Of a stretch of 64,000 nucleotides of DNA, positions 6,783 to 60,982 are shown piece by piece. Source of the DNA: an uncultured Gemmatimonadaceae bacterium. Lineage in GTDB: Bacteria; Gemmatimonadota; Gemmatimonadetes; Gemmatimonadales; Gemmatimonadaceae. How positions within the stretch are numbered: the first letter of the stretch is position 1; every line of letters begins with the position of its first letter. The position numbers and the translations under genes were made by a program. The notes beneath the pieces are model-generated. The model did no database searches. It had not been told where the DNA came from and was given only the letters and a program-made list of their open reading frames with translations. The stretch is from the NCBI GenBank assembly GCA_963781585.1, contig CAWAGQ010000004.1:896001-960000 (forward strand), written 5' to 3'.

Positions 6783-7505
6783 TCAGATGCGCTGCTCGCG
6801 CACCAGCAATGCCACGAGCTCGGAGCCGAAGCCATCCAGCTCGCCGTCGATCCGATTGAGCCGGGTGGCGAAGATGTTGTACGCGAACACCGCCGGGATC
6901 GCGACCGCCAGGGCCAGCGCCGTCGCCGTCAGCGCCTCGGCCACGCCGGGCGCGACCGCGCCGATATTCCCCGCGCCGCCCACCGCGATTCCGAGAAACG
7001 AGTGGATCACCCCGAGCACCGTGCCTAACAATCCGATCAGGGGGCTCACCGACCCGATGGTTCCGAGCCACGGCACGAAGTGCGCCAGTGCGTCGCGTTC
7101 GACCGCCATCTGCGAGTCCATGACTTCGCGAAGCGCCTCCACCTGGGCCGCGCTCAGGCGTGGCGTCCGCTCCGGAGTACCCACCAGCGCGGGCGTGGTT
7201 TCCGTGAGAAACAGCTGCGCGCGCTCGAAGACGCGCGTGAAGGGATTGGCCCGCCCCTTGGCGGCGAGACGCGCCACCTCAGCCAGGCTCTGTGCACGTT
7301 CGAACTGGCGCACGAACGACGCGCCGGTGCGCCGAACGCGCCGGTACTCGATCCACTTGGCGAACATGATGGTCCAGCTCACCAGCGACAGGAGTGCGAG
7401 CAGTGCAAGCACACCCTGGGTCACGGGGGTAGCCGAGGTAATCAGTTCGAGCGGCGTGGACGGAATCGCGCCGCTGACCTGTGCAAGGAGGGGAAACGGC
7501 ATCAC
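6783..7505 (-). CDS. tolQ: TolQ/ExbB (MotA family) proton channel
   Basis: LGTIGSVSPLIGLLGTVLG and VAPGVAEALTATA motifs. Confidence 0.92.
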   Translation of the reverse strand: MMPFPLLAQVSGAIPSTPLELITSATPVTQGVLALLALLSLVSWTIMFAKWIEYRRVRRTGASFVRQFERAQSLAEVARLAAKGRANPFTRVFERAQLFLTETTPALVGTPERTPRLSAAQVEALREVMDSQMAVERDALAHFVPWLGTIGSVSPLIGLLGTVLGVIHSFLGIAVGGAGNIGAVAPGVAEALTATALALAVAIPAVFAYNIFATRLNRIDGELDGFGSELVALLVREQRI

Positions 7506-8467
7506 GGCATCTCCAGCTTCGTGCGCGACGCGAACCAGGCAAAGGTGTCCCGCAGGCCAGTCTCGAGCCCGACGAGCGGGCGCCAGCCCAGTTCACGCGC
7601 CGCCTTCTCCACCGTCACCGCGGATCGCTGCTGTTCCCCCGCTCGAGGTGGCGCATGCAGAACCGGGACCTCTGAACCGGCCACCCGTTGCAGGGCCCGC
7701 GCGAGGTCGATGACCGACGTCTCGGTCGCGGTGCCGATGTTGTAGGCGCGGACGTCCAGCCGGCCGCGGGACCGCAGCGTGGCCCGGGCGGCCGCCAGAT
7801 TGGCTCGCGCCACGTCACCGACGTACACGTAATCGCGCGTCTGAAGGCCTTCGCCGAACAGGGTCAGCGGCTGGCCGCTGAGGATCCGATCGCAGAAGAT
7901 GGCGACCACGCCGGCTTCGCCATGGGGATTCTGCCGGGGCCCATAGACGTTCGAGTACCGCAGGATGACACTCTCCACTCCGTGAACCCGACCGTAGTAG
8001 GCGAGGTAGTACTCCACGCTCAGTTTCGCGATGCCGTACGGCGATTCCGGATCCTTGGGCATGTCCTCCACCGACGGAACGGGAACGAAGTCCCCGTAGA
8101 TGGCGCCACCGGTGGACGAAAAGACGACGCGGGTCGGGAAACCGCTCGCGCGCACGGCCTCCAGCAGGTTCAATGCACCGACGATGTTGATCGCGGCATC
8201 CGCGGCGGGATCGCTCACGCTCTTGCGGACATCGATCTGGGCAGCGAGATGGCAGACGAGGTCGAACCGGCCTTCGCGCACCAGGCGGGCCGCGTCCGGA
8301 GCCCGCAGGTCGACCTGATGGAAGCGTGCCCGTTCCGGCAGATTGGCGCGGTTGCCGGAGGACAAGTCGTCGACGATCTCGACCACCATCCCTTCGGCGA
8401 GCAACAGGTCGGCCACGTGCGAGCCGATGAATCCCGCGCCGCCGGTCACGAGGGCGCGTCCGCTCAT
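7502..8467 (-). CDS. NAD-dependent epimerase/dehydratase (UDP-glucose 4-epimerase-like)
   Basis: TGGAGFIGSH, YGIAK, RYSNVYGPRQNPHGEAGVV. Confidence 0.9.
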   Translation of the reverse strand: MSGRALVTGGAGFIGSHVADLLLAEGMVVEIVDDLSSGNRANLPERARFHQVDLRAPDAARLVREGRFDLVCHLAAQIDVRKSVSDPAADAAINIVGALNLLEAVRASGFPTRVVFSSTGGAIYGDFVPVPSVEDMPKDPESPYGIAKLSVEYYLAYYGRVHGVESVILRYSNVYGPRQNPHGEAGVVAIFCDRILSGQPLTLFGEGLQTRDYVYVGDVARANLAAARATLRSRGRLDVRAYNIGTATETSVIDLARALQRVAGSEVPVLHAPPRAGEQQRSAVTVEKAARELGWRPLVGLETGLRDTFAWFASRTKLEMP

Positions 8468-8646
8468 GCGGGCGCGACAGGTGTGCTGGATGCAGCCGTC
8501 ATCGAGACGCTCCCGCGTCGGGTGTTGGTGACGCCGCAGACGAAACCGGCGCCGGGGTGTGTGGCCCCAGCGCCGGGTTCCGTCACTGCGAGTTCACTGA
8601 GAGCGCGCGTGGGCAGTGGTCGCCAATCTAACGACTGTCGCTCGCG

Positions 8647-10017
8647 TCAGGGGAGTTTGGCGCTGACGCGCACGGGCATGCCGGGCGCGATGTCGCCGCG
8701 CTGCCGCCTGATGATCTTCGCCGTGGCAGTGCGCAGCCCCACGCGCAGCACTGTGGCGACCGCGATCTCGCCAGAGTGGAGCGCGGCGGTGTCCTCTCCC
8801 ACCGGGCCAAGAAGGGTGACCTGATCGCCCGGCTTCACCCCGGAAAGCGTGCCGAGATTCACGATCACATCGTACTGCAGCGAGGGGAGGAGCGCCGAGC
8901 TGCCGATCCACACTACTTCGCCGGTCGCTCCGTTCGAAACCGGGACTGGATGTGCCGGCGTCGTGTCGGCGGGCAGTGCCAGCGGGAACAGCTGATCGGA
9001 GCAGGACATCGTTCCGAACTGTGCGAGCACCGTGGCGCGTGTCGCGGTGCCAGCCCCGCCGCTATCGACTCTGACGATGCCAGTTGGGACCATGACGGTG
9101 CCCAGCCCTTCGAGTTGGGGACCAACGTGTGCCGCGAGCAGACGATCGCCCGCGGACACGGGGACAGCCTCGGGCGGCGCCAGCACCATGCGATCCCCAT
9201 AGCGCACGACCGACGAGGCGCCGCCTGCCGAGTCTCCGCTGGTGGAGAACGCGAGACATCGGCCGGCGCCCCACATCGCATCTGCGCCCGGCCTCATGGT
9301 TCCCGGCGCGCCGCGGCTCGCGCCGCCTTGCACCCCTATCGCAATCCACTCGGCAGGCAGCACGAATGGCGCCGACACGTACTCCCAGGCCCGGACCGGA
9401 GCCGGCGGTGCCACTTCCGGCCCGATCGTGTCCGCGCCTAACGACATGGCGGGCGGGGGCGCCGCACCCGGCTCCTTGCCGAAGAAGATCGACCGCCCGG
9501 CCATCGTGGGCGCGCCCGGGGCCGGCGAGGCCGCTTCCAGTACCCCCGGGTGCTCGACCGCCGCCTGGGGTGGCCCGGGTTTCTTCACCGCCACCGTCTT
9601 TCGCGCCCCTCCGCCGGCGGGCGGCGCGGCTGGTTTGCTCACGGCGGGTGGACGCTGCCCGCCGGCATTGCGAGGCGCCGAAGCCCGGTTGGATTCACCA
9701 CGGGCCGCCGTTCCCATCGGCGCCGACGGGCTGCGGGTCGCTGCCGAACGCCGCGCCCTCGGCGGCAACACCAGTCGCAGACCGGTCTCCAGCTGATTCG
9801 GCGACGTCACATGCTCCCGGTTCAGGGACAGTATCTCGGTCCACCGATGCCCGTCTCCCAGGGAGTCTTGGGCGATCCGCCAGAGCGTTTCACCCGCCTT
9901 GACCACATGACTGCGCGTCCCCGTCGCGGCAGGTTGCGCGCCTAACAGCGCGGGGGCCACCAGGGCCCCCGCGAGCAATGCTACCAGCCAATCAGAACGG
10001 AAGGTCGTCGTCCTCAT
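8647..10017 (-). CDS. LysM peptidoglycan-binding protein with a C-terminal FlgT-C-like region (TsaP-like architecture)
   Basis: Signal peptide; LysM (HVVKAGETLWRIA...WTEILSLN...LETGLRLVLP); low-complexity linker; C-terminal NLGTLSGVKPGD...VLRVGLRTATAKI. Start uncertain. Confidence 0.7.
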   Translation of the reverse strand: MRTTTFRSDWLVALLAGALVAPALLGAQPAATGTRSHVVKAGETLWRIAQDSLGDGHRWTEILSLNREHVTSPNQLETGLRLVLPPRARRSAATRSPSAPMGTAARGESNRASAPRNAGGQRPPAVSKPAAPPAGGGARKTVAVKKPGPPQAAVEHPGVLEAASPAPGAPTMAGRSIFFGKEPGAAPPPAMSLGADTIGPEVAPPAPVRAWEYVSAPFVLPAEWIAIGVQGGASRGAPGTMRPGADAMWGAGRCLAFSTSGDSAGGASSVVRYGDRMVLAPPEAVPVSAGDRLLAAHVGPQLEGLGTVMVPTGIVRVDSGGAGTATRATVLAQFGTMSCSDQLFPLALPADTTPAHPVPVSNGATGEVVWIGSSALLPSLQYDVIVNLGTLSGVKPGDQVTLLGPVGEDTAALHSGEIAVATVLRVGLRTATAKIIRRQRGDIAPGMPVRVSAKLP

Positions 10018-10519: not shown

Positions 10520-10658
10520 ATGTCCTCCTGGCGAGTGAAGTCTAACGGCTCGCCCATGAGAGTATCCAGATGCCGGCGCCGCGGCGCAAACGCGGCATTG
10601 CTGAGATAATCATTCGATTGCAAGCGAACGAGAGTATATGACCTCGTGGGCCACCCGC

Positions 10659-15541: not shown

Positions 15542-16711
15542 TCAGCGCGCATCACCCAGGCCGATCGCCAGTCCGATCGTCAGCACGCAGAGGACCGCGC
15601 CAAGCAGAAATGGCGACGCCATCCCGGCGTGATCGAACAGCACTCCGTCCCACCACGGGAACACTGCCCGCGCCACACCGCCAAACGTCTGCTGCACCCC
15701 CATGTAGAGGCCACGGCTCTCCTTCGGCACCACCCGCGACAGCAACGCCGTCACCCCGGGAAAGGTGAACGCCGTGCCTAACGGCATCAGGGTACATGCG
15801 ATCGCCAGCATCCCGTAACTCGCGGACACGGCGAACAGCGCCATGCCCCCAGCCAGCAGCGCCAGCCCGAGCCGAGACAGCCGCACCTCGCCCAGCCGTT
15901 TCACCGCCGGTCCGAGCAGCAGGAGCCGCGTGACCACCCCCATCGCGCCGAACCACATGAAGAAGTAGCCGATCGTCCGCTCGGTCACCGCGAACCGCCG
16001 TTCGAGGAACTGCGCAAATACCGCCGGCAGCCCGTAGAAAGCGCCGATCGCGATCGTGTAGGTCCAGATGAGGCGGGACGGAACCGACCACGGCCGGCCC
16101 ACGATCCGCCAGATCGCCTGACGAGGCGGCGGTCCCCGCATCTCCCCCGTGAGGGCCGTGCGGGAATCGTGCGATTCGCGCAGGTACCGCCACGCGAACC
16201 CCATGTTCACCGCGGCCACCGTCGCCGCTCCCAGCCCCGGCGCCGCCGGTCCCCACGCCGCGATCAGCAGCGACCCCAGCCCGGGGCCGAGGACGACTCC
16301 GAGACTCGTCGCCGCCGACAGCCAGCCGAGCGCCTTGGCGCGCTCGTCAGGCGGCGTGATGTCCGTGACATACGCCTGCACCACGCCCACCGTGCCGCCG
16401 CCCAGTCCCTGCACAACCCGCGACACGAGCAGCAGCCAGAAGCTCGTCGCGAACCCGAACACCACGTAGGCGATCGCCGATGCGCCGAGTCCGACCAGCA
16501 ACGTCGGTCGCCGGCCGCGGTGGTCCGAGAGCCGTCCCCACCAGGGCGCGCTCACCAGCTGGGCCACCGAGAAGATCCCGATCAGAATCCCGATCTGCGC
16601 GCTGCTCGCGCCCATCCGCTCGGCGTAGAACGGGAGCAGCGGAATGACCAGCACGAACCCGATCATGTCGACCAGGGCCGTCACCAGCAGGACGCCGAAG
16701 CGGGCGTCCAC
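15542..16711 (-). CDS. MFS transporter (TetA/DHA1-like)
   Basis: Motif A GRLSDHRGRR; about 12 TM segments; GTG overlaps the rel stop (TAGTG). Confidence 0.9.
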   Translation of the reverse strand: MDARFGVLLVTALVDMIGFVLVIPLLPFYAERMGASSAQIGILIGIFSVAQLVSAPWWGRLSDHRGRRPTLLVGLGASAIAYVVFGFATSFWLLLVSRVVQGLGGGTVGVVQAYVTDITPPDERAKALGWLSAATSLGVVLGPGLGSLLIAAWGPAAPGLGAATVAAVNMGFAWRYLRESHDSRTALTGEMRGPPPRQAIWRIVGRPWSVPSRLIWTYTIAIGAFYGLPAVFAQFLERRFAVTERTIGYFFMWFGAMGVVTRLLLLGPAVKRLGEVRLSRLGLALLAGGMALFAVSASYGMLAIACTLMPLGTAFTFPGVTALLSRVVPKESRGLYMGVQQTFGGVARAVFPWWDGVLFDHAGMASPFLLGAVLCVLTIGLAIGLGDAR

Positions 16712-18900
16712 TACTCGTCGGACGTGATGTGCTCGCGGCGCGCGACTTCCTTGATGCCCTTCACCCGCCGCGCGGCCTTCATGATCTTCTGCAGGTGAGC
16801 GAGGTTTTCGACCTCGACCATCGCCGCGCCCGTCACGCGGCCATCTACCGAGCGGAGTTCCAGCGTCCGGATGTCGGTTCCGGTCGCGCTCACCGCCGCC
16901 GCCACGTCGGCGTACAACCCGCGTCGGTCGATCCCTTCGAGCACCAACCGGACGAGAAATCGCTCGCCGGCCTGCTCCACCCAGTCGATTTCGAGGCGGC
17001 GCTCGGGCTCGTGGGCGAGGAGGAGGAGGTTGGGGCAGTCGGCGCGGTGGATGCTCACCCCGCGTCCGCGGGTGACGTATCCCACCACCGCGTCGCCCGG
17101 CACGGGCTGACAGCACTGGGCATAGCGCACCATCAGGCCGTCGGCCCCCTGGATGCGCACGCCGCGCGAGGTCCCGCGCATGCGGTCCATGAGCCGCACC
17201 CGGTCCATCAGCCGCTCGAGCGGTGTGGCCCTGGGCTGGTGGTCGGGCGACCCCTCCTGCTCTGGATAGAGGAGCTTGAGCACCTGCCCGACGCTCAGGT
17301 CTCCCTGGCCGATCGACGCGATCAGGTGCTGGCCGTCGGTGAGCTTCAAGGTGGCGGCCGCGGCCTCGAGGGCGTCGTCCTTGAGCTTCGGAAGGCGCCG
17401 CTTGCGCACCTCACGCTCGAGGATCTCGCGCCCGACCCGTTCCGATGACTGGTGCTCCTCCTGCCGCAGCCACTGCCGGATCTTGTGGCGCGCGCGTCCG
17501 GTGTGGACATGCGCCAGCCAGTCACGGCTCGGCTTCGCGTTAGGCGAAGTGATGATCTCGACCGTCTCCGAGTTCCTGAGCTGCCTGGCGAGCGGCGCGA
17601 TCCTGGCGTTCACCTTGGCCCCGGCGCAGTGGAGCCCCACTTCGGTATGGACCGCGAACGCGAAGTCGATCGGCGTCGCCCCCCGGGGCAGCTGGATCAC
17701 GTCCCCGGTCGGCGTGAAGACGAAGATTTCGTCCTGGTACAGGTCGAGCTTGAGGAATTCCAGGAACTCCGCGGGATCCTTGGCGTCGAGCTGCAGCTTC
17801 AGCACCTCCCGGAACCACTGGAGATGGCGGTCCAACTCGTCGGCCGACTTGGCGTCGGTCTTGTAGCGCCAGTGCGCCGCGATCCCGAACTCCGCCGTCC
17901 GGTGCTGGTCGCGGGTGCGGATCTGGATCTCGTACAGCTGCTTGCCGGGTCCGAAGATCGTGGTGTGGAGCGACTGGTAACCGTTCGACTTCGGCTGCCC
18001 GATGTAGTCCTTGATCCGCTCCTGAAGCGGGGTCCAGCCGTCGTGGATGACGCCTAACGCATGGTAGCAGTCGGGGACCGTATTCACCAGCACCCGGATC
18101 GCCAGCAGGTCGTAGATCTCCTCGTATGGCCGCTCGCGCTTCTGCATCTTCCTGTAGATCGACCACAGATGCTTGGCCCGGCCCGTCACCTCCACGTCGG
18201 GGATGCCGGCCTCCTTCAGCACGCGCTCGAGGGGAGCCTGCAGTTGCGCGATCAGCGCCTCCCGCTCGGCGCGCTTGGCGGCCACCAGCTTCGCCAGCTT
18301 CCGGTACTCGTCGGACTCGAGGAACTTGAACGACAGATCCTCCAGCTCCCAGCGCATCTTCGCCATACCGAAGCGGTGCGCAAGCGGGGCGTACAGGTCC
18401 ATCGTCTCCAGGGCGATGCGGTGCTGCTTGTCCTCAGGCAGCGAGTCCAGCGTCCGCATGTTGTGGAGCCGGTCGGCCAGCTTGATGATGATGACCCGCG
18501 CGTCCCTGGCGATCGACACGAGAAGCTTGCGGTAGTTCTCGACCTGGCGCTCCTCGGTCGAGTGCATCGGCAGGTGTCCGATCTTGGTCAGCCCGTCGAC
18601 GATCTGGGCCATCTCCGGACCAAACTCCCGCTCCACGTCTTCGATCCGGACCGGGGTGTCCTCCACCACGTCGTGGATGAGCCCCGTGGCGACCGTGGCT
18701 GAATCCAGCTGCAGCTCCGCCAGGATCTTGGCGACCTCTACGCAGTGCGTGACGAACGGATCGCCGTTCCGCCGGAACTGCCCCTCGTGCGCCCGCGCAC
18801 TGAACCGATACGCACGCGCGAGCAGGTCCAGGTCGAGGCGCTCCGAAAGCGCCTCTCCCACGGTCCAGCCGGGGATGAGTTCGGTCAGCGTTGTTGCCAT
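16711..18900 (-). CDS. rel: Bifunctional (p)ppGpp synthetase/hydrolase (long RSH)
   Basis: HD domain HDVVED, KLADRLHNMRT, YQSLHT, EIQIRT, TGS, CC and ACT regions. Confidence 0.97.
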   Translation of the reverse strand: MATTLTELIPGWTVGEALSERLDLDLLARAYRFSARAHEGQFRRNGDPFVTHCVEVAKILAELQLDSATVATGLIHDVVEDTPVRIEDVEREFGPEMAQIVDGLTKIGHLPMHSTEERQVENYRKLLVSIARDARVIIIKLADRLHNMRTLDSLPEDKQHRIALETMDLYAPLAHRFGMAKMRWELEDLSFKFLESDEYRKLAKLVAAKRAEREALIAQLQAPLERVLKEAGIPDVEVTGRAKHLWSIYRKMQKRERPYEEIYDLLAIRVLVNTVPDCYHALGVIHDGWTPLQERIKDYIGQPKSNGYQSLHTTIFGPGKQLYEIQIRTRDQHRTAEFGIAAHWRYKTDAKSADELDRHLQWFREVLKLQLDAKDPAEFLEFLKLDLYQDEIFVFTPTGDVIQLPRGATPIDFAFAVHTEVGLHCAGAKVNARIAPLARQLRNSETVEIITSPNAKPSRDWLAHVHTGRARHKIRQWLRQEEHQSSERVGREILEREVRKRRLPKLKDDALEAAAATLKLTDGQHLIASIGQGDLSVGQVLKLLYPEQEGSPDHQPRATPLERLMDRVRLMDRMRGTSRGVRIQGADGLMVRYAQCCQPVPGDAVVGYVTRGRGVSIHRADCPNLLLLAHEPERRLEIDWVEQAGERFLVRLVLEGIDRRGLYADVAAAVSATGTDIRTLELRSVDGRVTGAAMVEVENLAHLQKIMKAARRVKGIKEVARREHITSDE

Positions 18901-20069: not shown

Positions 20070-23000
20070 CTACGCGCTCGCCCCGTGGCACTTCTTGAAC
20101 TTTTTTCCGGATCCGCAGGGACAGGGGTCGTTCCTTCCCACGCTCGCCCAGTTCGCGTCGCCGGACGCGCCGCCCGCGCTGCGGATGCTGGTGCTCCCCA
20201 TCTGCGAAAGCGACTTCGTGCGCCCGGCTCCCACGACCAGCGGGTCCTGCCGCGCGGAGACAGTCTTCTTTGGCGGCTCGTCGGGCGCGACGTCCATCAC
20301 CGTCTGCTGGCCGTCACCGTCCAGCGACGCACCGGCGGCCACCGGCTCTTCGGCCGGGATGTCCTCGAGGATGCCTAACGCGTTGTAGCGGCGCTGCGGT
20401 GCGGCGGAAGGACCGCCGCCGCCCCCGGGGCCACGACCGCCGTCCCCCTGCGGCGCCGGCGTCGGCGGCCCGAATACGAGCTGTGCGCGAAGGAACCGTT
20501 CGGTGAACGTGGTGTGGATGTCGTTCATCAGGTCCACGAACATCGTGTACGCTTCCTGCTTGTACTCGATCAGGGGATCCTTCTGGCCCCACGAGCGATA
20601 GTGGATGGCCGCCCTGAGCTGGTCGAGGTCGTAGAGGTGGTCCTTCCACTTTTCGTCCAGGACGTTGAGCATCACAAGGGAGAGCAGCCGGCTGGCGAAG
20701 CCCTGACCCGTCTCGTCCTGCACCTCGTTCAGGCCGGTCTCCTTCACCTCGAACGCCTTCAGCGCCGCGCCCAGGGCTGCTGTCGACAGACCTTCCACGG
20801 TGGTCGGCGAGTCGTCGGCCTCGAGTTCCGGCACGACCAGCAGGTAGTGCATCAGCAGTTCCTGCCGCAGGAGCCCCAGATCCCACTGGTTTGCGTCTTC
20901 GTATTCGCCGGCAAAATCCTCCACGCGCTTTTGCACGGCCTTCTCGACCATCTTCAGCGCTTCGCCGCGCAATTCCTCCCCCCCTCGAGGGCGAACGAGC
21001 GCAGCGAGTAGATCACCTCGCGCTGCTGGTTCATCACGTCGTCGTATTCGAGGAGGCGCTTGCGGGCCTGGAAGTTCTGCAGTTCGACCCGCTTCTGCGC
21101 CTGCTCGATGGACCGGGTGATGAGGGGATGAGTAAGGACTTCCCCTTCCTGGGCACCCAGCCGGTCCATCAGGCGCGCGATGCGCTCCGAGCCGAAGAGC
21201 CGCATCAGATCGTCTTCCAGGGAGAGGAAGAATTGTGACGCGCCGGGATCGCCCTGGCGGCCGGCCCGACCGCGCAGCTGTCGATCGATGCGACGTGACT
21301 CGTGGCGTTCCGAGCCGACGATGTGCAACCCGCCGCACTCCTCGACGTCGATCGGGTTCCCTTCCGGATCCTTGACGCGGGAGGGCTTCGACACGGTGAT
21401 GCCGGCCCCGAGTTTGATGTCGGTTCCGCGACCGGCCATGTTGGTCGCGATTGTCACCGCACCCGGCTGGCCGGCATTGGCGACGATCTCGGCCTCGCGC
21501 TGGTGGTACTTCGCGTTGAGTACACTGTGCGGCAGGGCGGCGCGCTTGAACATGCGCGACAGCGTTTCCGACACCTCCACGCTCACCGTCCCGACCAGTA
21601 CCGGGTAGCCGAGGTCGTGCAGTCGCCGCGTTTCCTCGACGATCGCGTTGTATTTCTCGCGCCGGGTCTTGAAGACGAGGTCCTGCCGGTCGTCGCGGAT
21701 CACCGGGCGGTTGGTCGGGATCACCGCCACGTCGAGCTTGTAGATCTGGTGGAATTCGGTCTCCTCGGTCTCGGCGGTGCCGGTCATGCCGGCGAGCTTT
21801 TCGTACATGCGGAAGTAGTTCTGGATGGTGATGGTCGCGAGCGTCTGCGTCTCGCCCTTGACCTTCACGCTCTCCTTGGCTTCCACCGCCTGGTGCAGCC
21901 CCTCCGACCAGCGGCGGCCCGGCATGGTACGGCCGGTGAACTCGTCGACGATCAGGACCTCGCCATCCTGGACCACGTAGTTGACGTCCTTCTCGTAGAG
22001 CGCGTGCGCCCGCAGGAGCTGGTGGACGATGTGGAGCTTCTCGCTCTTCATCGCGTATTCGGTCTCGATCGACTTCCGCGCGTCGAGCTTTTCCTGCGGC
22101 GACATCTCTCCGTCGTGTTCGATCCGGTGGATTTCGGTGGAGATATCGGGGAGCTCGAACTGGTCGTGATCGGACGGCGAGAGCGCGTCGACACCCCGAT
22201 CGGTGAGGTGCACGGTGTGGCCCTTCTCGTCCAGCACGAAGTACAGGTCGTTCTCCAGCTCCCGGTACTGCTGTTTGTTCGGCGACACCTTCCGGTCCGC
22301 CAGATAGTCCAGCTCCATCCGGTTCACCAGCTGCTTCACGCCGGGCTCCTGCATGGACTTGAGCAGCCGCTTGTTCTTCGGATGGCCGAGCTGCGCCTTG
22401 TACAGCGCCAGGGCCGCCGCCGCCTGGTCGCCCGTTTCCAGCGCGCGTTCGCCCTCACCCACCAGCGCGTTCACCACCTCGGTCTGCCGGCGGAACATCC
22501 GCTCGACCGCGCTGTTGTGGTCCGCGAACATCTCGTCGTTTTCGTTGCCCACCGGACCCGAGATGATCAGCGGCGTTCGGGCTTCGTCGATCAGCACGGA
22601 GTCCACTTCGTCCACGATCGCGTACCAGTGGGTCTTCTGCACCCGCTGGTCCAGCGAGATCACCATGTTGTCGCGCAGATAATCGAAGCCGAATTCGTTG
22701 TTGGTGCCGTAGGTGATATCGCACTCGTAGGCGGCGCGGCGGGCCGGGCTCCCCGGTTCGGTGTCATCGATGCACCCGACGGTGAGGCCCAGGTATTCAT
22801 ACACATGGCCCATCCATTGCGAGTCGCGACGCGCCAGGTACGAGTTGACCGTGACCAGATGCGAGCCTTTTCCCGGTAACGCGTTCAGGTACAGTGGCAG
22901 CGTCGCCACCAGCGTCTTGCCTTCGCCGGTGGCCATCTCGGCGATGCGCCCCAGATGGAGCTCGATGCCGCCCATCAGCTGGACGTCATACGGAACCATA

Positions 23001-23425
23001 TCCCAGGCCATCTCGCGGCCGGTGACCGTTATCGTGGTGCCTAACAAGCGGCGGGCCGCTTCCCGGACCGTGGCGAACGCCTCGGGCAGGATCTGGTCGA
23101 GCGTGTCGGCAATCACCTTTCGCAGTTCGGCATCCACCCCGCCCCGCCCGTCGACCCCTGTGAGGTCGTTGTCCAGCCGGTCCCGGTCGGCCGGATCCTT
23201 GGTGATCTTCTTGAGTTCCTTCAGCTCGGCGACGCGGCGCTCGAGTGCCTCGGTGCGGTCGTGCAGGATGCCCCGGAGCTTGGCGGTCTGACCCCGCAGC
23301 TCGTCATCGGACACTCCCTGCAACCGCGCGTAGTGCGCGTTGATCTCGTCGACAATGGGTTGAATCCGGCGACGCTCGCGCTCGTGTCGCGATCCGAAGA
23401 GCTTTCCGGCTACCTGCTTGAGCAT
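20070..23425 (-). CDS. secA: Preprotein translocase SecA, split by a 1-nt frameshift at about 20978-20984
   Basis: ORF 20954-23425 has [23 protein letters not shown] and [13 protein letters not shown]. The C-terminal part, in another frame, has [10 protein letters not shown] and the SEC-C motif [18 protein letters not shown]. One extra G in the G7 run joins them ([14 protein letters not shown]). Confidence 0.93.
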
Positions 23426-25053: not shown

Positions 25054-26010
25054 TCAGGCGCTTCGCGGGCGTCGGGCGCCGGGGCCAAGCGACCGGAAGT
25101 ACTCGATGGTTCGCGTCACGCCCTCGCGGAGCGGGACCCGTGGTTCCCAGCCGAGCGTCTCCCTGGCCCTGGAGATGTCGGGCTTGCGCACCTTGGGATC
25201 ATCGACCGGCAGGGGCTCGTAGTGGATCGGGGAGGTGGTCCCGGTGAGGTCCACGACCAGCTCAGCCAGCTGCCGCACGGTGTACTCGTCGGGATTCCCG
25301 ACATTGGTCGGGGCCGCCGTGCCGTGCTGGAAGAGTCGGTAGATGCCATCGATCTCGTCGTCGACGTAGCAGAACGAGCGGGTCTGGCTGCCGTCGCCAT
25401 AGATCGTGATCGGCTCATCGCCCAGCGCCTGAATGATGAAGTTCGACACCACTCGGCCGTCGCGCGGCCGCATGCGCGGACCGTAGGTGTTGAAGATCCG
25501 GACGATCCGCGTGTCGAGACCGTGCACCCGGTGGTACGCCATGGTCATGGCTTCGGCAAAGCGCTTGGCTTCATCGTACACGCCCCGTGGCCCGATCGGA
25601 TTGACGTTGCCCCAGTACGACTCGGGTTGCGGATGGACCAGCGGGTCGCCGTAGACCTCGGAGGTGGACGCCAGGAAGAAGCGAGCCCCCTTGGCCTTGG
25701 CGAGGCCTAACGCGTTGTGCGTGCCTAACGCCCCGACCTTGAGCGTGGCGATCGGATGTTCCAGGTAATCCACCGGGCTGGCGGGAGACGCGAAGTGGAG
25801 CACGCCGTCCACCGGTCCGGCGACGTACATGTAGGTCGAGACGTTGTGCCGGAAGAACTCGAAGTCCGGTCGTCCCATCAGGTGGGCGATGTTGTCCGGG
25901 TTCCCGGTCACGAAGTTGTCGATGCCCACCACCCGATGCCCGTCGGCGAGGAACCGGTCGCTGAGGTGCGAGCCGAGGAACCCCGCCGCCCCGGTGATGA
26001 CGACTCTCAT
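25054..26010 (-). CDS. UDP-glucuronate decarboxylase family protein (UXS-like)
   Basis: [46 protein letters not shown]. Confidence 0.93.
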
Positions 26011-36169: not shown

Positions 36170-36198
36170 AAAAAGGGGAGCGCCTAACGCGCTCCCCC
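36170..36198 (-). terminator. Rho-independent terminator after rpmB
   Basis: Minus strand GGGGAGCGC-GTTAG-GCGCTCCCC-TTTTT: a 9-bp stem followed by a U tract. Confidence 0.85.
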
Positions 36199-41374: not shown

Positions 41375-42654
41375 GGCTCTCCGGAGCCCGCGCTCTCGCG
41401 CCGCTGCTGGTAGTGCGAGACGTAGCGTTCGGTTGCGTCGGCGATGGCGCGCGCGAGCGTCTGCTGACCCGATGCGCTGGAGAGATAGCTGGCTTCGGTG
41501 GCGTTGGTCCCGAACCCGATCTCCACCAGCACGGCCGGCATGTGGGCCGTGACCAGCACCAGGAATCCGGCCTGTTTCACGCCACGATCCTGCCCCGACG
41601 GGTGGACCTGTCCCAATCCTTCCTGAATCGTGGCGGCCAGTCGGCTCGATTCGCGCAGGTTCTCATTCTGCTCCATGTCGGCGAGGAGATACGAGAGCGG
41701 GTCGCCTGGCTCGGCATCGACTCCAACATCGTACTTCGACGCCTCGTTTTCCATCTCCTGCACACGCTTCTCGTCCTCGGTCTTGGCCTCGGAGAGAAAA
41801 TACGTCTCGAACCCGCGTGCGGCGCGAGGATTCTGCCAGTGCAGGTTGGCGGCGTTCACATGTATCGAGACGAAGACATCGGCCGCCGCGCGGTTGGCGA
41901 TGCGTCCGCGGTCGGCGAGCGCAATCAGGGTGTCGGTCGTGCGGGTCATGATCACCTTGGCCCCGCGCGCCTGCAGCAGATCGCGCACTCGTCGCGCCAC
42001 CGCGAGCGTGATGTCCGCCTCGTAGACCTTGTGGCTGGCGCCAATCGGGCCGCTCATACCCCGATCCGGTCCGCCGTGGCCCGCGTCGACGACGATCACC
42101 GGTACTAGGTCGCGGGGGCGGCTGGGCGGCGGGGGCGCGCCGCGATTCGGTGGCGTCGCGTCGGCAGGCGGGCGCCCCTTCTCTGCGGAGGGAGCTGGGG
42201 CCACGGGGGCCGCGACCGCGGATGTCGCGCTCGGGACAGCGGGCGGGACGCGACCGGTACTCGACGCGAGCCTGGCGAGCTCCCGCCGACCGGCATCGTA
42301 TCGATAGCCGGCCGCGAACCGCGGTATGACGTCGGTCACCACCCGCAGAGCGAAATACAGTGTGCCATCGACAATGAGCGGAGCCGCCCCGACCGGCACC
42401 AGTTCCGTTCCGACCCGAACGGCCGGCAGATCCAGCGTGAGGTCGAACCGCGCGCCCCCAGCTTCGATCGTGTAGCGATCGCGGCTGACCCGCGTGAGGC
42501 GCGCGCCTAACGGCGGGAGGACCTGATCGCTGCGCACGATCGGGCCCGACCGCGTCACCACGACGGGCACCGATACGGACCGATCCCCCGCCCGCACCGT
42601 GAGCGCGGCGGCAGGGACGGCAGTCTGGAAAAACGTGAGCAGTGTGATGATCAT
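41371..42654 (-). CDS. N-acetylmuramoyl-L-alanine amidase (Amidase_3)
   Basis: VDAGHGGPD, EADITL, TRTTD, VSIHVNA, PAVLVEIGF. Confidence 0.93.
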   Translation of the reverse strand: MIITLLTFFQTAVPAAALTVRAGDRSVSVPVVVTRSGPIVRSDQVLPPLGARLTRVSRDRYTIEAGGARFDLTLDLPAVRVGTELVPVGAAPLIVDGTLYFALRVVTDVIPRFAAGYRYDAGRRELARLASSTGRVPPAVPSATSAVAAPVAPAPSAEKGRPPADATPPNRGAPPPPSRPRDLVPVIVVDAGHGGPDRGMSGPIGASHKVYEADITLAVARRVRDLLQARGAKVIMTRTTDTLIALADRGRIANRAAADVFVSIHVNAANLHWQNPRAARGFETYFLSEAKTEDEKRVQEMENEASKYDVGVDAEPGDPLSYLLADMEQNENLRESSRLAATIQEGLGQVHPSGQDRGVKQAGFLVLVTAHMPAVLVEIGFGTNATEASYLSSASGQQTLARAIADATERYVSHYQQRRESAGSGEP

Positions 42655-54622: not shown

Positions 54623-55378
54623 TCAGTGAGCCACGTCGAGTCGCCGCACGAACGTGCGGCTCTCGGGTTTGCGTATCGTCACGCTTCCCACCGGATCCCG
54701 TTCGCCGCGCTGGCCCAGGCGCTCGGGGTCCGTCCCCCCGCGACCGGAAGGCGGCGTGGTGGCGCGATACACGAACGCGATCCGCTGCACGGCCGTGATC
54801 CACGCCGTTACGGAGAGCACCACGCAGATCGAGATCAGCACCCAACCGCTGAGCGCGAGGCCGAAGAATGCCTGCGGTGCTGACAGCAGGATGATGCGGC
54901 CCGGTCGCTGAAGGATGCCCACCTTGGCGTCGATGCCCAGGCTCTCGGCTCGGGCACGGGTATACGAGGTCAGAAAGGATCCGACGATCCCGAGGAGCAG
55001 CACCGCAACCATGGGAGTCGACATGTACGCCGGAAACCCCAGAAGTGCGTCCCTCCGGGAGAAGAAGACGCACAGCCCGCCCAGAATGGCGCCGTCGGCC
55101 AGGCGGTCCAGCGTCGAATCGTAGAACGCACCGAATACGCTCTCGCGACCCGTGCGTCGCGCTACCTGGCCGTCCACGACATCGAACAGGGCGGTGAATC
55201 CCAGGACGTATCCGGCCACCCGGATGTGTCCGGTGGCGTAGATCGCCCCCGCAGCGACGCAGCACAGCGTCCCGACGGTCGTGATCGCGTTCGGATTGAC
55301 CTTCCTTGCCACCATCCAGTCAACTATGGGCGCAATGAGCCAGAAATAGCCGCGCTTGACCTGTTCCCAGAGGCGCAT
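54623..55378 (-). CDS. CDP-alcohol phosphatidyltransferase (PI/PIP synthase-like)
   Basis: PNAIT, DVVDGQVARR...GAFYDSTLDR, SYTRARAE. Confidence 0.9.
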   Translation of the reverse strand: MRLWEQVKRGYFWLIAPIVDWMVARKVNPNAITTVGTLCCVAAGAIYATGHIRVAGYVLGFTALFDVVDGQVARRTGRESVFGAFYDSTLDRLADGAILGGLCVFFSRRDALLGFPAYMSTPMVAVLLLGIVGSFLTSYTRARAESLGIDAKVGILQRPGRIILLSAPQAFFGLALSGWVLISICVVLSVTAWITAVQRIAFVYRATTPPSGRGGTDPERLGQRGERDPVGSVTIRKPESRTFVRRLDVAH

Positions 55379-55720
55379 CAGATGCGAAAAGACCCTGGTT
55401 GGATGGGTGGCGGAGTGCCGGGTGACGAGGGCGGGGATTTTCTGCAAGCCTCTGAAACTACGCCGGTTAGTAGCCGGTCACAACCCTCGTCAGGTGAACC
55501 GAATGGCCGACCGTCGGCACCCGACGGCTGGCCATTCCGGGAGGCTTCCTGCACGCGCAGGGCGAAGACCATTGCGCGACCGCGCTACACGTCTCACCAT
55601 GCCGACTTGTACCACGCTACCTTAGTTCAGGCAGGCCGCGCGCCCACTCATCGTGGAACCGGCGGCACCGCGACACAATCCGGTGACTCATTTGCCGGCA
55701 CGTTCCACGAAAGGAAGACG

Positions 55721-56950
55721 ATGATGCACTCGACATGCGGCGCTTCAGGCACGAGGCTCCTTGCGGCTGCGACCGCTGGGCTCGCGTTGCTTGCACCCGG
55801 ACTCGGAGCCCAACCGGCGCTGCCGGAGGGTGGTGCGGCACCGCACGTCATCGCCTCCGGTTCGAACGCGGCGGACGTGGCCCGGCTCGGGGATTCGGTG
55901 CGGGCCATCCTCACGCTCGGTGTGCGCGACTCGGCGTTTCCCGGCGCGGTCGCCATCGTGGGCACGCGCGACGGCATTCTCACCGAGACCGCCGTTGGCC
56001 ATCTCGACTGGGATCCGTCACCGGTGCCTGATGAGCATACTCTCTGGGATCTGGCCTCGCTCACGAAGGTCGTAGCGCTGACCAGCGTGGTGATGCAGCT
56101 CGTGGAGGCGCACCGGCTGGACCTCGATGCGCCCGTCCAGAAGTACCTGCCGGAGTGGACCGGAAAGTACAAGAGCCGCGTGACGGTCCGGCACCTGCTC
56201 ACGCATTCGTCCGGACTGCCGGCCTGGCGCCCGTTGTACAAGGAGGCTGCGTCTCCGGCCCAAGCGCTCCAGCTGGCGATCGAGACGCCGCTCGACACCG
56301 CCCCGGGCGTGAGGATGGTGTACAGCGACATCGGCGCCATCCTGCTGGGGCAGATCGTCGTCCGGATCACGCACGAACCGTTCGATCAGTATGTCTCCGA
56401 GCACGTCCTGCAACCGCTCGGGATGCACGAGACGATGTTCCGACCGCCGCCGGACTTGCGCGCGCGCGCCGCCCCCACCGAAGTGGATCCCTGGCGGCAA
56501 CGCCACCTGCAGGGGGAGGTCCACGACGAAAACGCCTACGCGTTAGGCGGTGTCTCGTCGCATGCCGGATTGTTCAGCACGGCCGGCGACCTGACCCGGT
56601 TCGCCCGGATGTACCTGAACGGGGGCACGCTCGACGGCACCCGCGTTGTCTCGCCCGAGACGATCGCCCGATTCACCGCGGTGCAGGATCGCGCTTTCTC
56701 CAACCGGGCCCTGGGATGGGAAACGCCGTCGGGCTCGAACTCCGCCGGGCACTTCATGTCGTCCACCGCATTTGGCCACACCGGATTCACCGGCACGTCA
56801 CTGTGGATTGATCCGCAACGGGGTGTTTTCGTCCTCCTGCTCACCAATCGGGTGGACCCTACACGGCAACGCACGGGTATCGCGGGCGTCCGCACCCGGG
56901 TCGCCGACGCCGCGATGGCCGTCGTCACGCATATGCTGGGGAGTCGCTGA
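55721..56950 (+). CDS. Serine hydrolase, beta-lactamase-related (AmiE-like)
   Basis: Signal peptide; DLASLTK (SxxK), LLTHSSGL, YSD, VHDENA, GHTGFTG. Confidence 0.9.
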   Translation: MMHSTCGASGTRLLAAATAGLALLAPGLGAQPALPEGGAAPHVIASGSNAADVARLGDSVRAILTLGVRDSAFPGAVAIVGTRDGILTETAVGHLDWDPSPVPDEHTLWDLASLTKVVALTSVVMQLVEAHRLDLDAPVQKYLPEWTGKYKSRVTVRHLLTHSSGLPAWRPLYKEAASPAQALQLAIETPLDTAPGVRMVYSDIGAILLGQIVVRITHEPFDQYVSEHVLQPLGMHETMFRPPPDLRARAAPTEVDPWRQRHLQGEVHDENAYALGGVSSHAGLFSTAGDLTRFARMYLNGGTLDGTRVVSPETIARFTAVQDRAFSNRALGWETPSGSNSAGHFMSSTAFGHTGFTGTSLWIDPQRGVFVLLLTNRVDPTRQRTGIAGVRTRVADAAMAVVTHMLGSR

Positions 56951-57490: not shown

Positions 57491-57502
57491 ACCGACGCAC
57501 CA

Positions 57503-59446
57503 ATGACATCGCGGGCACCGGGCGTTCTGGACGCCGGCGCCGAGCGTGAGGCCCGTGCTCTGCAATCGAGTCGCGGGCCTCTTCATTTGTCACCGCGCGA
57601 CGCGACCTCCCGCGAGCGCATCCGCACTGTCGTCGTGGATGACTACGCGGACATGGCGCGGGTGGTCGCCGGCCGCGTCGCTCAGCTGATTCGCGAGCGC
57701 GCCGAAGCGAACGAATCGGTCGTACTCGGGCTGGCCACAGGTTCCACGCCCATCGGCGTGTATCGCGAGCTGATCCGGATGCACGAGCAGGAGAACCTCA
57801 GCTTTCGCAATGTCACCACGTTCAACCTGGATGAGTACTACCCGATGGATCGGGAGAGCGTGCACTCCTACCATCGGTTCATGTGGGAGAACCTCTTCGC
57901 GCGGATCGACATCGATCCGCGACGCGTGCATCTCCCCGACGGTGGCGTTCCCCGTGAGGCGCTGCTCGAACAGACCCGCCAGTATGAAGAGGCGATCGAG
58001 CGCGCCGGCGGCATCGACTTCCAGATCCTCGGAATCGGCCGCACCGGACACGTCGGATTCAACGAACCCGGGTCCGGCGCTGAAAGCCGGACCCGCGTGG
58101 TCACGCTCGACGCGGTCACGCGCCGCGATGCGGCGGCGGATTTCTTCGGCGAGGACAATGTCCCGCGTGAAGCGATCACGATCGGGATCGCGACGATTCT
58201 CGCGGCCCGCGAGATCGCGATTCTCGCCACGGGTGAACACAAGGCGGCCATCGTCCGGCGCGCAGTGGAGGGCGACGTGGACATGGAAGTCGCCGCCACC
58301 TTTCTGCAGCGCCATCAGAACACCACGTTCTACGTCGACCGCGCCGCGGCCGCCGATCTCACCCGCATTGCGACGCCGTGGCTGGTGGATGAAGTTCGCT
58401 GGACCGACCAGCTCGCGGTGCGGGCCGTGGCCTGGCTGAGCCGGGTCGCGGGCAAGGGCATGCTGAAGCTCACGCAAGGCGACTACGCGGAGCACCGGCT
58501 CTCGTCGCTGGTGGCCGCGTACGGCAGCCCCGGCGACGTGAACGGCAAGGTGTTCAACCTCCTCGGTGCCAAGATCCGTGGGAAATCGAAGCTGCCTCGC
58601 GGGAAGCGCATGCTCGTATTCTCCCCCCACCCCGACGATGACGTGATCTCCATGGGCGGTGCATTGCGCAAGTTGATCGAGAACCGCAATGACATCACCG
58701 TGGCATACATGACGAGCGGCAACATCGCCGTCTTCGATCACGATGTGCGGCGGTACGTGGATTTTCTGGTGCGTCTCGCGCGCGAGAGCGCGATCGGGGC
58801 CGAAGCGACGCTCGCGTTGCGCGACCGGGTGCAGACCTTTCTGGCCCGCAAGCGGCCGGGGGACGTGGATCTGGCCGAGATTCAGGTCATCAAGCGTGTG
58901 ATCCGCGAGACCGAAGCGGTGGCCGCCATTGAGACGCTGGGTCTTTCCGGCGCCAATGCCCGATTCCTCAACCTTCCGTTCTACCAGACCGGCAAGGTGC
59001 GGAAGGATCCGGTCGGTCCGGCCGATGTCGCGATCGTGACGGCCCTCCTGCGCGACCAGCGTCCCGAGATCGTTTTCGTCGCGGGCGATCTCTCCGATCC
59101 ACACGGCACGCACCGGATGTGCAAGGAAGCGATCGAACAGGCGTTAGGCGGGCTGGGTGACGATGCAGGGTTCGCGAAACCCGAGGTCTGGCTGTACCGG
59201 GGCGCGTGGCAGGAGTGGCCGCTCACCGAGGCGACCTGGCTCGTTCCCCTGTCACAGGAAGAACTCCGCGTGAAGATCGAGGCGATCTTCAAGCACCAGT
59301 CGCAGAAGGACTCGGCGCCGTTTCCCGGACAGGACGACCGCGAGTTCTGGCAGCGGGTCGAGGCCCGGAACAAGGAGAGCGCGGCGATGCTCGACCGGCT
59401 CGGACTGGCGGAATACTTCGCGCTGGAAGCCTATGTCGTGGCCTGA
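57503..59446 (+). CDS. nagB: Glucosamine-6-phosphate deaminase fused to a PIG-L/LmbE deacetylase domain
   Basis: GLATGSTP, NLDEYY, GIGRTGHVGFNEPG; C-terminal SPHPDDD and DPHGTH. Confidence 0.93.
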   Translation: MTSRAPGVLDAGAEREARALQSSRGPLHLSPRDATSRERIRTVVVDDYADMARVVAGRVAQLIRERAEANESVVLGLATGSTPIGVYRELIRMHEQENLSFRNVTTFNLDEYYPMDRESVHSYHRFMWENLFARIDIDPRRVHLPDGGVPREALLEQTRQYEEAIERAGGIDFQILGIGRTGHVGFNEPGSGAESRTRVVTLDAVTRRDAAADFFGEDNVPREAITIGIATILAAREIAILATGEHKAAIVRRAVEGDVDMEVAATFLQRHQNTTFYVDRAAAADLTRIATPWLVDEVRWTDQLAVRAVAWLSRVAGKGMLKLTQGDYAEHRLSSLVAAYGSPGDVNGKVFNLLGAKIRGKSKLPRGKRMLVFSPHPDDDVISMGGALRKLIENRNDITVAYMTSGNIAVFDHDVRRYVDFLVRLARESAIGAEATLALRDRVQTFLARKRPGDVDLAEIQVIKRVIRETEAVAAIETLGLSGANARFLNLPFYQTGKVRKDPVGPADVAIVTALLRDQRPEIVFVAGDLSDPHGTHRMCKEAIEQALGGLGDDAGFAKPEVWLYRGAWQEWPLTEATWLVPLSQEELRVKIEAIFKHQSQKDSAPFPGQDDREFWQRVEARNKESAAMLDRLGLAEYFALEAYVVA

Positions 59447-59461
59447 AGCGGGCGGCGCCAG

Positions 59462-60982
59462 GTGACCTCCCGCTTCACCGCATTCGACGCCGTCGTGCTG
59501 CTCGTCTACATGGTGGGCACCACGCTGCTGGGCGTCTGGCTCGGCCGCGGGCGGAAGAGCGCGCGCGACTACTTCGTGGCCAGCCACCAGATTCCGTGGT
59601 GGGCCGTGCTCTTCTCGGTGGTCGCGACCGAAACCAGCGCGCTTACGTTCATCAGCATTCCGGGGCTGGCCTATACCGGAGATATGACGTTTCTCCAGAT
59701 CGCGGCTGGCTATCTGGTGGGACGCGTGGTAGTCGCGGCGGTGCTGCTGCCGCGCTACTTCCGGGGCGACCTGGTGACGGCCTACGCGCTGCTCGAGCGA
59801 CGCTTCGGCGTGGTGGCGCGCCGCTTCGCGTCGGTGACCTTCATGGCGACCCGCGCATTCGGCGACTCGGTCCGCGTGTTCGCGACCGCCATTCCGGTCG
59901 CCCTCATCATCGGACCGATAATGCCCGCGGCGCGCGTCACCCCGCTCGCCATCCTCCTGCTCGGCGTGTTCACGCTGATCTACACGTACTACGGCGGTAT
60001 GCGTGCCGTCGTGTGGACCGACGTGCTGCAGACCGGCGTCTACCTCCTGGGTGGCGTGTCCGCGTTGGTGCTCATCGGACATGGGGTGACCGGGGGTTGG
60101 AGCGGCATTCTTGCAAACGCCGGCGCCGCCGGGAAACTGCGGGTGTTCGACCTCTATGCCGGCGTGGATCGCGCGCAAACGTTGTGGGCGGGACTCATCG
60201 GCGGCGCGTTCCTGTCCATGGCCTCGCACGGCACCGACCAGCTGATCGTGCAACGTCTGCTGTCATCGTCGGATCTGCGCGACGCGCGACGCGCGCTGGT
60301 GGGGAGCGGCGTCGCCGTCATCGTGCAGTTCGCGCTCTTCCTGGTGATCGGCGTCGGGCTGCACGAGTACTACCACGGTCGCGCGTTCGCGCGGCCCGAC
60401 GAAATCTTCCCCACGTTCATCATTGACGTCATGCCGCCGGGGCTCACCGGTCTGGTGGTCGCGGCGATCCTCGCCGCTGCCATGAGCACGGTCTCCGGCT
60501 CCCTCAACTCGCTGTCCGCCGCGACCACCCACGATATCTTCCTGCCGATCACCGGGCGCCGTGAGGACGAGCAGTCCCTGTACCGCGTCGGCCGCCTGTT
60601 CACGGTTTTCTGGGCGATCGTGCTGATCGGAGGGGCGCTCCTGTATCGCGCACAGGGCACGCCGGTGGTGGTCGTGGCCCTGTCGATCGCTTCGTTCACC
60701 TATGGAGGCTTGTTAGGCGGCTTCGCGCTCGGCGTGACGTGGCGGCGGGCCGTGCAGCGGGACGCCGTCACCGGCATGGCGGTGGGCATCGCCGCCATGA
60801 CGCTGGTGGTGTTCGCCCCGCAGATTTCCGCGGCATACCCGTCGCTGGCCCGCTCGCTGGGCCCCTTGGCGCGCATCGCGTGGCCCTGGTACGTTCTCAT
60901 CGGCACCACCATCACCATGGCGGTCGGAATTCTCTCTTCGCTCACCCATCCGGCGCCCGCCGCGGCGCAGACCGCGCCATGA
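59462..60982 (+). CDS. Sodium:solute symporter
   Basis: SVVATETSALTF, GGMRAVVWTD, DQLIVQR, AAAMST; multi-TM. Confidence 0.93.
   Translation: MTSRFTAFDAVVLLVYMVGTTLLGVWLGRGRKSARDYFVASHQIPWWAVLFSVVATETSALTFISIPGLAYTGDMTFLQIAAGYLVGRVVVAAVLLPRYFRGDLVTAYALLERRFGVVARRFASVTFMATRAFGDSVRVFATAIPVALIIGPIMPAARVTPLAILLLGVFTLIYTYYGGMRAVVWTDVLQTGVYLLGGVSALVLIGHGVTGGWSGILANAGAAGKLRVFDLYAGVDRAQTLWAGLIGGAFLSMASHGTDQLIVQRLLSSSDLRDARRALVGSGVAVIVQFALFLVIGVGLHEYYHGRAFARPDEIFPTFIIDVMPPGLTGLVVAAILAAAMSTVSGSLNSLSAATTHDIFLPITGRREDEQSLYRVGRLFTVFWAIVLIGGALLYRAQGTPVVVVALSIASFTYGGLLGGFALGVTWRRAVQRDAVTGMAVGIAAMTLVVFAPQISAAYPSLARSLGPLARIAWPWYVLIGTTITMAVGILSSLTHPAPAAAQTAP

Follow-up and report, generated by a model that had tools for sequence, protein, structure and literature searches.

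A hyper-abundant 8-mer in part of the Gemmatimonadaceae, possibly an uptake-sequence-like self-tag

Introduction

To our knowledge, hyper-abundant genomic words with a known reader have been described in only two bacterial families, as the DNA uptake sequences (DUS) of the Neisseriaceae and the uptake signal sequences (USS) of the Pasteurellaceae, and we know of no explanation for HIP1, the abundant word of cyanobacteria, even after decades. Here we describe a third case of a hyper-abundant word, in an abundant and little-studied soil phylum. The word is the 8-mer CGTTAGGC, met in a 64,000-nucleotide stretch of DNA (the window; C4:896001-960000 of the source assembly, G000) from an uncultured bacterium of the Gemmatimonadaceae. 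It is strand-blind, evenly spaced, conserved, costly in codon usage and richest in the most native genes. These traits suit a word that some active process maintains and that is read in duplex form. In the reading that we favour, to which we give a probability of about 0.4, CGTTAGGC would be an uptake-sequence-like self-tag of part of the family.

The closest described systems share some of these properties. DUS are enriched between genes, often as inverted pairs in terminators. Integron attC sites carry an R' core, GTTRRRY, and an inverse core, RYYYAAC, within a folding site of 57-141 nt. In the part of the DUS and USS literature drawn on here, one orientation is commoner in reading frames (PMC2346458), as is the case for our word. 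HIP1 (GCGATCGC) is described in the cited part of PMC5861425 as a hyper-abundant 8-mer, over-represented 15- to 300-fold, conserved both inside open reading frames (ORFs) and between them, and of unknown function.

Like DUS and USS, CGTTAGGC is short and asymmetric, reaches hundreds to thousands of copies, sits in the least costly frames, is shared by related genera, is scarce in atypical DNA and occurs with competence genes. Like HIP1, it is a hyper-abundant 8-mer whose sites are conserved above expectation (Jaccard index 0.705). However, HIP1 is a palindrome, whereas CGTTAGGC differs from its reverse complement GCCTAACG, and our word behaves as an on/off trait inside a single family and is lost quickly. 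It is identical to the R' end of the attC sites in the family's own cassette arrays. Yet the genomic copies, unlike attC sites, are solitary, lie inside conserved genes and not beside intI, and have no partner box or hairpin; nor does the abundance of the word follow the presence of the integron integrase (IntI). Finally, as an asymmetric 8-mer present once per few kb the word resembles Chi and the FtsK-orienting polar sequences (KOPS) and architecture-imparting sequences (AIMS), but unlike Chi and KOPS it has no replication polarity, and RecBCD/AddAB was not found in G000.

Abundance of the word against codon bias

The source assembly (5.72 Mb in 17 contigs, 67% GC, 93.5% complete, 7.2% contamination) holds the 7-mer GTTAGGC 1591 times, CGTTAGGC 1442 times and TTAG 3056 times. 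An order-3 Markov model expects 50.6 copies of the 8-mer, a 28.5-fold excess (z 196) that makes it the top 8-mer of the genome. The word goes unflagged in a ranking by a maximal-order Markov model, since its 7-mers are enriched to the same degree; the informative nulls are the order-3 model and the codon shuffle. The core of the signal is the 8-mer, not the 7-mer. Its flanks carry two weak preferences, with C depleted at -1 (12%) and R favoured at +1 (79%; 74% outside called ORFs).

A crude gene call gives 3174 stop-to-stop ORFs covering 78% of the genome. These hold 761 sense copies vs 18.6 (standard deviation (sd) 4.1) in 20 within-gene synonymous shuffles, and 313 antisense copies vs 28.4 (sd 3.5), excesses of 41-fold and 11-fold. 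TTA makes up only 1398 of some 142,700 Leu codons (1.0%), is mostly preceded by GCG, TCG, ACG or CCG, and is followed by GGC in 766 cases and by GGT in 96. At xCG-Leu-Gly sites the pair TTA-GGC takes 702 of 2879 places (24%). The pattern thus survives a codon-preserving shuffle, extends across the whole genome rather than being confined to the window, and goes with a TTA codon that is not equally used outside the GTTAGGC context. The proposal of the earlier note on this DNA, that a selective or biased process keeps the word against codon bias, is borne out by the Markov model and the synonymous shuffles, and by the CTC/CTG codons of word-less relatives and the conservation of sites described below. 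For annotation, the word explains why TTA and CCT codons cluster in one context.

Two near neighbours of the word also deserve mention. CGTCAGGC, one transition away, has 1519 copies, is 3.5-fold enriched and may be a weaker form of the signal. The variant CGTTATGC, one base off, occurs 6-7 times per 20 kb in the word-bearing related loci L003 and L008, with a median of 0 elsewhere, and may reflect a relaxed position 6.

Strand-blindness and replication

Is the word read in the coding strand or in the DNA itself? We counted the share of eligible sites that carry it, its saturation, in each frame of G000. Sense [SPTA]-Leu-Gly is saturated to 16.1% (701/4350), antisense x-Pro-Asn-[GVEDA], read CCT-AAC, to 32.3% (250/773), antisense [CRSG]-Leu-Thr to 2.9% (63/2211) and sense Val-Arg to 1.9% (59/3142). 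In a second word-rich genome, G052, sampled as 20 stretches of 20 kb from its 5.31-Mb contig, the word takes 83 of 387 Leu-Gly sites (21%) and 44 of 85 Pro-Asn sites (52%). The earlier note had held that orientation follows the gene. This turns out to be an effect of opportunity, as 313 of the 1074 in-ORF copies are antisense genome-wide and saturation is higher in the Pro-Asn frame; sense copies outnumber antisense ones in the window because Leu-Gly is common, not through a coding-strand preference. The signal resides in double-strand DNA, not in codons. The antisense saturation led us to reject a codon-pair or translation signal.

Replication leaves no trace either. On C4, where skew and gene direction switch near 575-740 kb, leading-strand genes carry the word at 108 of 630 Leu-Gly (17.1%) and 28 of 98 Pro-Asn sites (28.6%), and lagging-strand genes at 32 of 194 (16.5%) and 13 of 43 (30.2%), so that no polarity is seen on this contig once gene direction is accounted for. 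Sorted by local skew, the two orientations number 590 vs 515 in G000 and 50 vs 59 in the G052 sample; the latter has no polarity by local skew, and its replichores are undefinable because the sampled stretches have no usable skew pattern.

Copies in the window

GTTAGGC/GCCTAAC occurs 16 times in the window, where dinucleotide shuffles give 2.18 (sd 1.51, maximum 7; 0 of 100 reach 16). The enrichment of about 7-fold is well above the roughly 2-fold that had been guessed, while the 16 positions given before were matched exactly on recount. The copies and the one long word-free stretch are as follows.

1 to 7022, no strand: end of the word-free 36-kb stretch C4:866742-903022; core genes, not an island
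7023 to 7029, minus: word copy in the form TGTTAGGC, sense TTG-TTA-GGC (Leu-Leu-Gly)
9436 to 9442, minus: CGTTAGGC, sense TCG-TTA-GGC
9940 to 9946, minus: word copy in the form TGTTAGGC, sense CTG-TTA-GGC
15776 to 15782, minus: CGTTAGGC, sense CCG-TTA-GGC, in ORF 15542..17116
17539 to 17545, plus: CGTTAGGC, antisense in rel (729-aa ORF 16711..18900, minus), read CCT-AAC (Pro-Asn)
18052 to 18058, minus: CGTTAGGC, in rel, sense GCG-TTA-GGC
20373 to 20379, minus: CGTTAGGC, sense GCG-TTA-GGC, in ORF 20070..21338
23039 to 23045, minus: word copy in the form TGTTAGGC, sense TTG-TTA-GGC
25705 to 25711, minus: CGTTAGGC, sense GCG-TTA-GGC; the sole window copy with a 3' C
25723 to 25729, minus: CGTTAGGC, sense GCG-TTA-GGC; 18 bp from the copy at 25705, a rare close pair
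31914 to 31920, minus: CGTTAGGC, sense CCG-TTA-GGC
36182 to 36188, minus: CGTTAGGC, outside called ORFs, in the loop and stem of a terminator-like hairpin, GGGGAGCGC-GTTAG-GCGCTCCCC, with TT after it
42505 to 42511, minus: CGTTAGGC, sense CCG-TTA-GGC
56542 to 56548, plus: CGTTAGGC, sense GCG-TTA-GGC
59143 to 59149, plus: CGTTAGGC, sense GCG-TTA-GGC
60712 to 60718, plus: word copy in the form TGTTAGGC, sense TTG-TTA-GGC

What the earlier note had read from these copies largely stands. Fourteen are sense, in-frame xYG-TTA-GGC, 12 of them in ORFs of the crude caller and two (15776 and 20373) in ORFs that the caller missed but another ORF list gives; one is reversed in rel (17539) and one lies in the terminator-like hairpin (36182). 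The 5' flank of the 7-mer is Y in 16/16 (C 12, T 4) and the 3' flank R in 15/16, the exception being 25705. TTA is rare outside the word, with 20 among 1618 Leu codons of the ORF calls, 14 of them in the word. TTAG/CTAA is found 23 times vs 68.3 expected, which leaves the seven occurrences outside the word that had been counted. The claim that every in-gene TTAG belongs to the word holds with one possible exception at 55622, a TTA-GTT in frame with the stop-to-stop ORF 55226..56950 that may precede the true start.

At 1-55500 of the window, almost every called gene is encoded by the minus strand. High gene strand bias in a conserved region has been reported for Gemmatimonadota (in the part of PMC11237797 drawn on here).

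Spacing and genomic context

Gaps between copies in G000 (mean 3536, median 2465, coefficient of variation 1.0) look exponential overall, but relative to an exponential the classes differ: gaps below 300 bp reach only 0.22-0.34 of expectation and those of 300-500 bp about 0.6, while gaps of 1-3 kb reach 1.2-1.3. When words are dealt at random among eligible Leu-Gly and Pro-Asn sites (200 deals), 6.2% of gaps fall below 300 bp (sd 0.7, minimum 4.0) vs 1.2% observed. Short gaps are therefore deficient, and copies avoid one another within about 500 bp. Diminishing returns per DNA fragment would produce such short-range avoidance, and the exclusion zone of about 500 bp provides a length scale for the mechanism.

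Saturation climbs with G+C at third codon positions (GC3): the fifth of genes with the lowest GC3 has 9.7%, the fifth with the highest 26%. GC is low (0.622) in two of the longest word-free gaps (C8), and another contains a gene for a C5 cytosine methylase joined to Vsr. The latter, at C7:476304-478673, is a single frame of 790 aa that combines the methylase with a Vsr mismatch endonuclease, in a word-free gap of 24.5 kb.

Conservation and turnover among relatives

A Rel protein search supplied 80 related loci, 78 labelled Gemmatimonadaceae, Gemmatimonadales, Gemmatimonadota, Gemmatimonadetes, Gemmatimonas or Roseisolibacter and two (L057, L069) labelled as other phyla. At orthologous positions, word-less lineages have GCG-CTC-GGC or GCG-CTG-GGC vs GCG-TTA-GGC, and TTG and CTA intermediates occur. 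The word is written into conserved peptides by synonymous recoding. The site at 18052 in rel holds the word in 13 of the 80 loci and CTC, CTG or similar in the remainder, and the antisense site at 17539 is common to L001, L002, L003, L006, L007 and L008. Deamination of 5-methylcytosine in CGTCAGGC was rejected as a source of the word, since orthologous positions encode Leu (CTC/CTG) and not Ser.

Conservation can be gauged inside G000 itself, where about 484 kb are collinear between contigs (C2/C6 and C5/C8; 91 alignments, 88.8% identity). In these paired segments 103 word sites are shared and 43 one-sided, the Jaccard index of 0.705 given above. The index is 0.21-0.38 for ten control 8-mers (the synonymous CGCTGGGC and CGCTCGGC among them) and 0 for CGCTAGGC (0 shared, 12 one-sided); CGTCAGGC, at 0.50, lies above the other control 8-mers. 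Opposite a one-sided site there is mostly a sequence one transition away: CGTTAGGT in 10 cases, CGTCAGGC in 8 and CGTTGGGC in 3. The pairing of contigs, with the 7.2% contamination, points to a bin that combines two related populations or else to a large duplication. Whole-genome counts for G000 may hence mix two close relatives.

The word-bearing loci form about four clusters in a Rel tree of 70 rows, and a minimum of four changes is needed. One of them, L003, has a well-supported sister, L004, in which 22 kb hold 0 copies.

Distribution across the family

We surveyed 201 genomes of 77 genera (among them G008, G046, G047 and G145, flagged as unpublished), using the reversed word as control. 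Genomes with a word/control ratio of at least 2 were called rich and those with a ratio of at most 0.5 poor, that is, depleted. There are 63 rich genomes, with up to 1.34 copies per kb, 123 poor and 15 intermediate; all genomes are rich in 25 genera and poor in 40. Within genus g56, copy numbers are 66 in G119 and 3479-4141 in its three congeners. The word is an on/off trait that decays fast and is lost inside genera (G119, G016, and L004 vs L003). The sharp on/off contrast among the 201 genomes, together with the losses within genera, should let the reader gene be found by comparison.

A candidate self-tag

How could such a word be driven into the genome? In an uptake-sequence-like system, some protein handling incoming or recombining DNA would prefer duplexes that bear the word, and alleles gaining it would be passed on and fixed more often. 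The word would in this way be pushed into every place that the protein code tolerates, and the push would be balanced by the cost of rare codons and by the presence of a nearby copy. We infer that the reader acts in DNA uptake or recombination, and that the force is a drive rather than selection site by site. G000 encodes ComEC, DprA, a ComEA-like protein, a PilQ-like secretin and a minor-pilin cluster, and the three genera without detected ComEC (11 genomes) are all word-poor.

Several observations speak against a self-tag of this kind. No tested gene separates rich from poor genomes: ComEC is found in 60/63 rich and 110/123 poor genomes, the PilQ-like secretin in 195/201, and of six pilin-like ORFs in G000 the FimT/GspH-like and PilW-like ones, tested in five genomes, occur in rich and poor congeners. 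The earlier note had proposed to profile the word against competence and methyltransferase genes, and none of those examined (ComEC, PilQ, pilins, type IIG methylase) matches its distribution. No ComP-like receptor was identified in G000, and we found no report of competence in this phylum in the literature searched. Unlike DUS and USS, the word is enriched neither between genes (0.248 per kb inside GC3-rich ORFs vs 0.158 per kb in the 8.7% of G000 outside) nor in the inverted pairs of terminators (inverted repeats hold 2 of 78 non-coding copies). DUS and USS also differ in that no dialects were seen here: 53 homologous loci yielded no other lineage-specific 8-mer, and the trait is therefore the presence or absence of one word rather than a set of dialects. 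Nor were first-pass 8-mers, TCGAGTAC and TCGCCAAG among them, conspicuous in the contrast of these loci. The second-longest gap, C4:866742-903022, runs for 36 kb without a copy where about 0.06 such gaps are expected by chance, and its genes are core ones (alaS, recX, recA, ftsK, accC, hutUH, lptD, tol-pal). Last, the word equals an integron core, again unlike DUS and USS, and exact identity with the attC R' core is something that an uptake model does not predict. Our literature search found no paper on this word, nor on uptake sequences, Chi or over-represented words in Gemmatimonadota.

A chromosomal binding site

Alternatively, the word could be where an abundant chromosomal protein binds in place, along the lines suggested for HIP1 (nucleoid structure, segregation or similar), with weak selection holding each site. 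We regard this as somewhat unlikely. It would account for a strand-blind word spaced more evenly than chance, no denser between genes, and uniform across 25 all-rich genera. Conservation far above that of control words argues in the same direction, which is the argument made for HIP1 in the part of PMC5861425 cited. However, the word has been lost inside genera without obvious harm (G119, L004) and no candidate protein was identified. Selection spread over 1400-7800 sites would be very weak at each of them, yet the rarest Leu codon occupies 24% of xCG-Leu-Gly places.

The integron connection

The identity with attC comes from word-poor genomes. In G021 and G019 the few copies stand in same-strand arrays, about 550 bp apart, some of them adjoining intI. 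In three cassette arrays of these genomes an RYYYAAC inverse core lies 40-150 nt upstream of 38 of 41 plus-strand copies, and the attC sites, 90-136 nt long, have the form G[CT]CTAACA...[CT]CGTTAGGC and mostly fold at -41 to -64 kcal/mol. The inverse cores and the folding identify CGTTAGGC, including the C before GTTAGGC, as the R' end of the family's attC sites. The long arrays at G021:C95, G019:C3 and G021:C80 (L106-L108) have very uniform attC sites.

The genomic copies of G000 have no L box, inverse core or extended flank consensus. Scattered solo attC sites were rejected as an account of them: of eight close minus-plus pairs, one reaches a fold z of -4 or below, and most fold no better than shuffles.

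If the identity is causal, it joins DNA self-recognition to the biology of integron cassettes. The word might be the duplex form of the integron R box, and in word-rich Gemmatimonadaceae a protein that reads R boxes, for instance an uptake or recombination factor that arose to take in cassette-rich DNA, or a domesticated integrase-like DNA-binding module, might have driven the core into thousands of chromosomal sites. We think this unlikely. Were it true, self-recognition and cassette traffic would share one signal, and every gene would lie between potential integrase sites, which would bear on the unsolved origin of gene cassettes.

A 2.5-kb element bounded by GCCTAACG...CGTTAG is present in three near-identical copies in G000 (C7:172170-174744, C7 at about 182.8-185.4 kb and C13 at about 308.9-310.1 kb). 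Its products are a 303-aa tyrosine recombinase and a Y2 transposase of the IS91 family; G001 has a 100% identical copy, and elsewhere its recombinase often adjoins intI. The recombinase is found in 12/201 genomes, rich and poor.

Methylation, integrases and Chi

Type IIG-class enzymes read asymmetric sites of 6-8 bases, and known very-short-patch repair turns T:G into C:G. A sequence-specific methylase with biased mismatch repair could turn near-matches into the word and bring back mutated copies, a route of the sort put forward for HIP1 or known from very-short-patch repair, and the word would then be a by-product of repair. One-sided sites paired mostly with the single transitions listed above suit this idea, as do the 3.5-fold enrichment and unusual conservation (Jaccard 0.50) of CGTCAGGC itself and a core type IIG-like adenine methylase beside a SNF2 helicase in G000. 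We nevertheless judge it rather improbable. Vsr was found in 4/31 genomes (G000, G002, G007, G028). G000 is the sole rich genome among these, and its Vsr gene sits in a gap free of the word; the rich G001, G005, G009, G014, G015 and G030 gave no Vsr. The IIG-like methylase has orthologues in 187/201 genomes, rich and poor alike. Moreover, the change from CTS to TTA runs from GC to AT, opposite to patch repair, and mutual avoidance within 500 bp is not predicted.

The pair in question, at C6:142085-147708 (paralogue at C2:157769-161029), consists of a gene for a 1079-aa type IIG-like adenine methylase of Eco57I/MmeI type and, after it, one for a 976-aa SNF2-family helicase, with housekeeping genes around. 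The occurrence of the methylase in 187/201 genomes makes the two a core gene pair rather than a mobile defence island. The regular-expression screen for methylases gave 15 candidates, five of them DNA methylases, and may have missed some.

It is also conceivable that the integron integrase or a close relative reads the word, the copies being duplex R boxes that serve as monomer or secondary sites, with an abundance tied to integron activity. The R' identity (38/41 with an inverse core), the arrays beside intI and the three-copy mobile element bounded by the word all point this way, and integrases are unusually widespread, with matches at E <=1e-60 in 122/201 genomes. Still, this is very unlikely. 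The integrase is present in 43/63 rich vs 71/123 poor genomes, with no association between IntI and richness (Fisher p 0.20); it is absent from the rich G005 and G015 and present only as fragments in the rich G009. The genomic copies have no L box or inverse core, only one close pair in eight folds well, and insertion sites inside genes would be harmful.

A Chi-like signal for an end-processing helicase-nuclease, suggested by an asymmetric 8-mer once per 0.75-4 kb as in E. coli Chi, is highly improbable, since the word is made of rare and not common codons, has no replication polarity after accounting for gene direction, and G000 gave no RecC (PF04257) or alpha-type AddB (TIGR02786) and no more than a pair of weak PDDEXK_1 matches (ORFs near 560 aa), an absence that is not proven because the assembly is 93.5% complete.

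Other abundant words

G000 has a second family of abundant words, AGGCCAAA (331 copies), AAAGGCCA (368) and GGCCAAAG (394), which are 6- to 12-fold over the order-3 Markov expectation and also rank at the top under the maximal-order model. Loci of 11-22 kb hold 4-8 copies each of a palindrome, TTCATGAA, where 0.04-0.4 are expected, in word-rich and word-poor lineages (L002, L003, L005, L010-L012, L016, L024, L030, L043, L059, L065 and L070).

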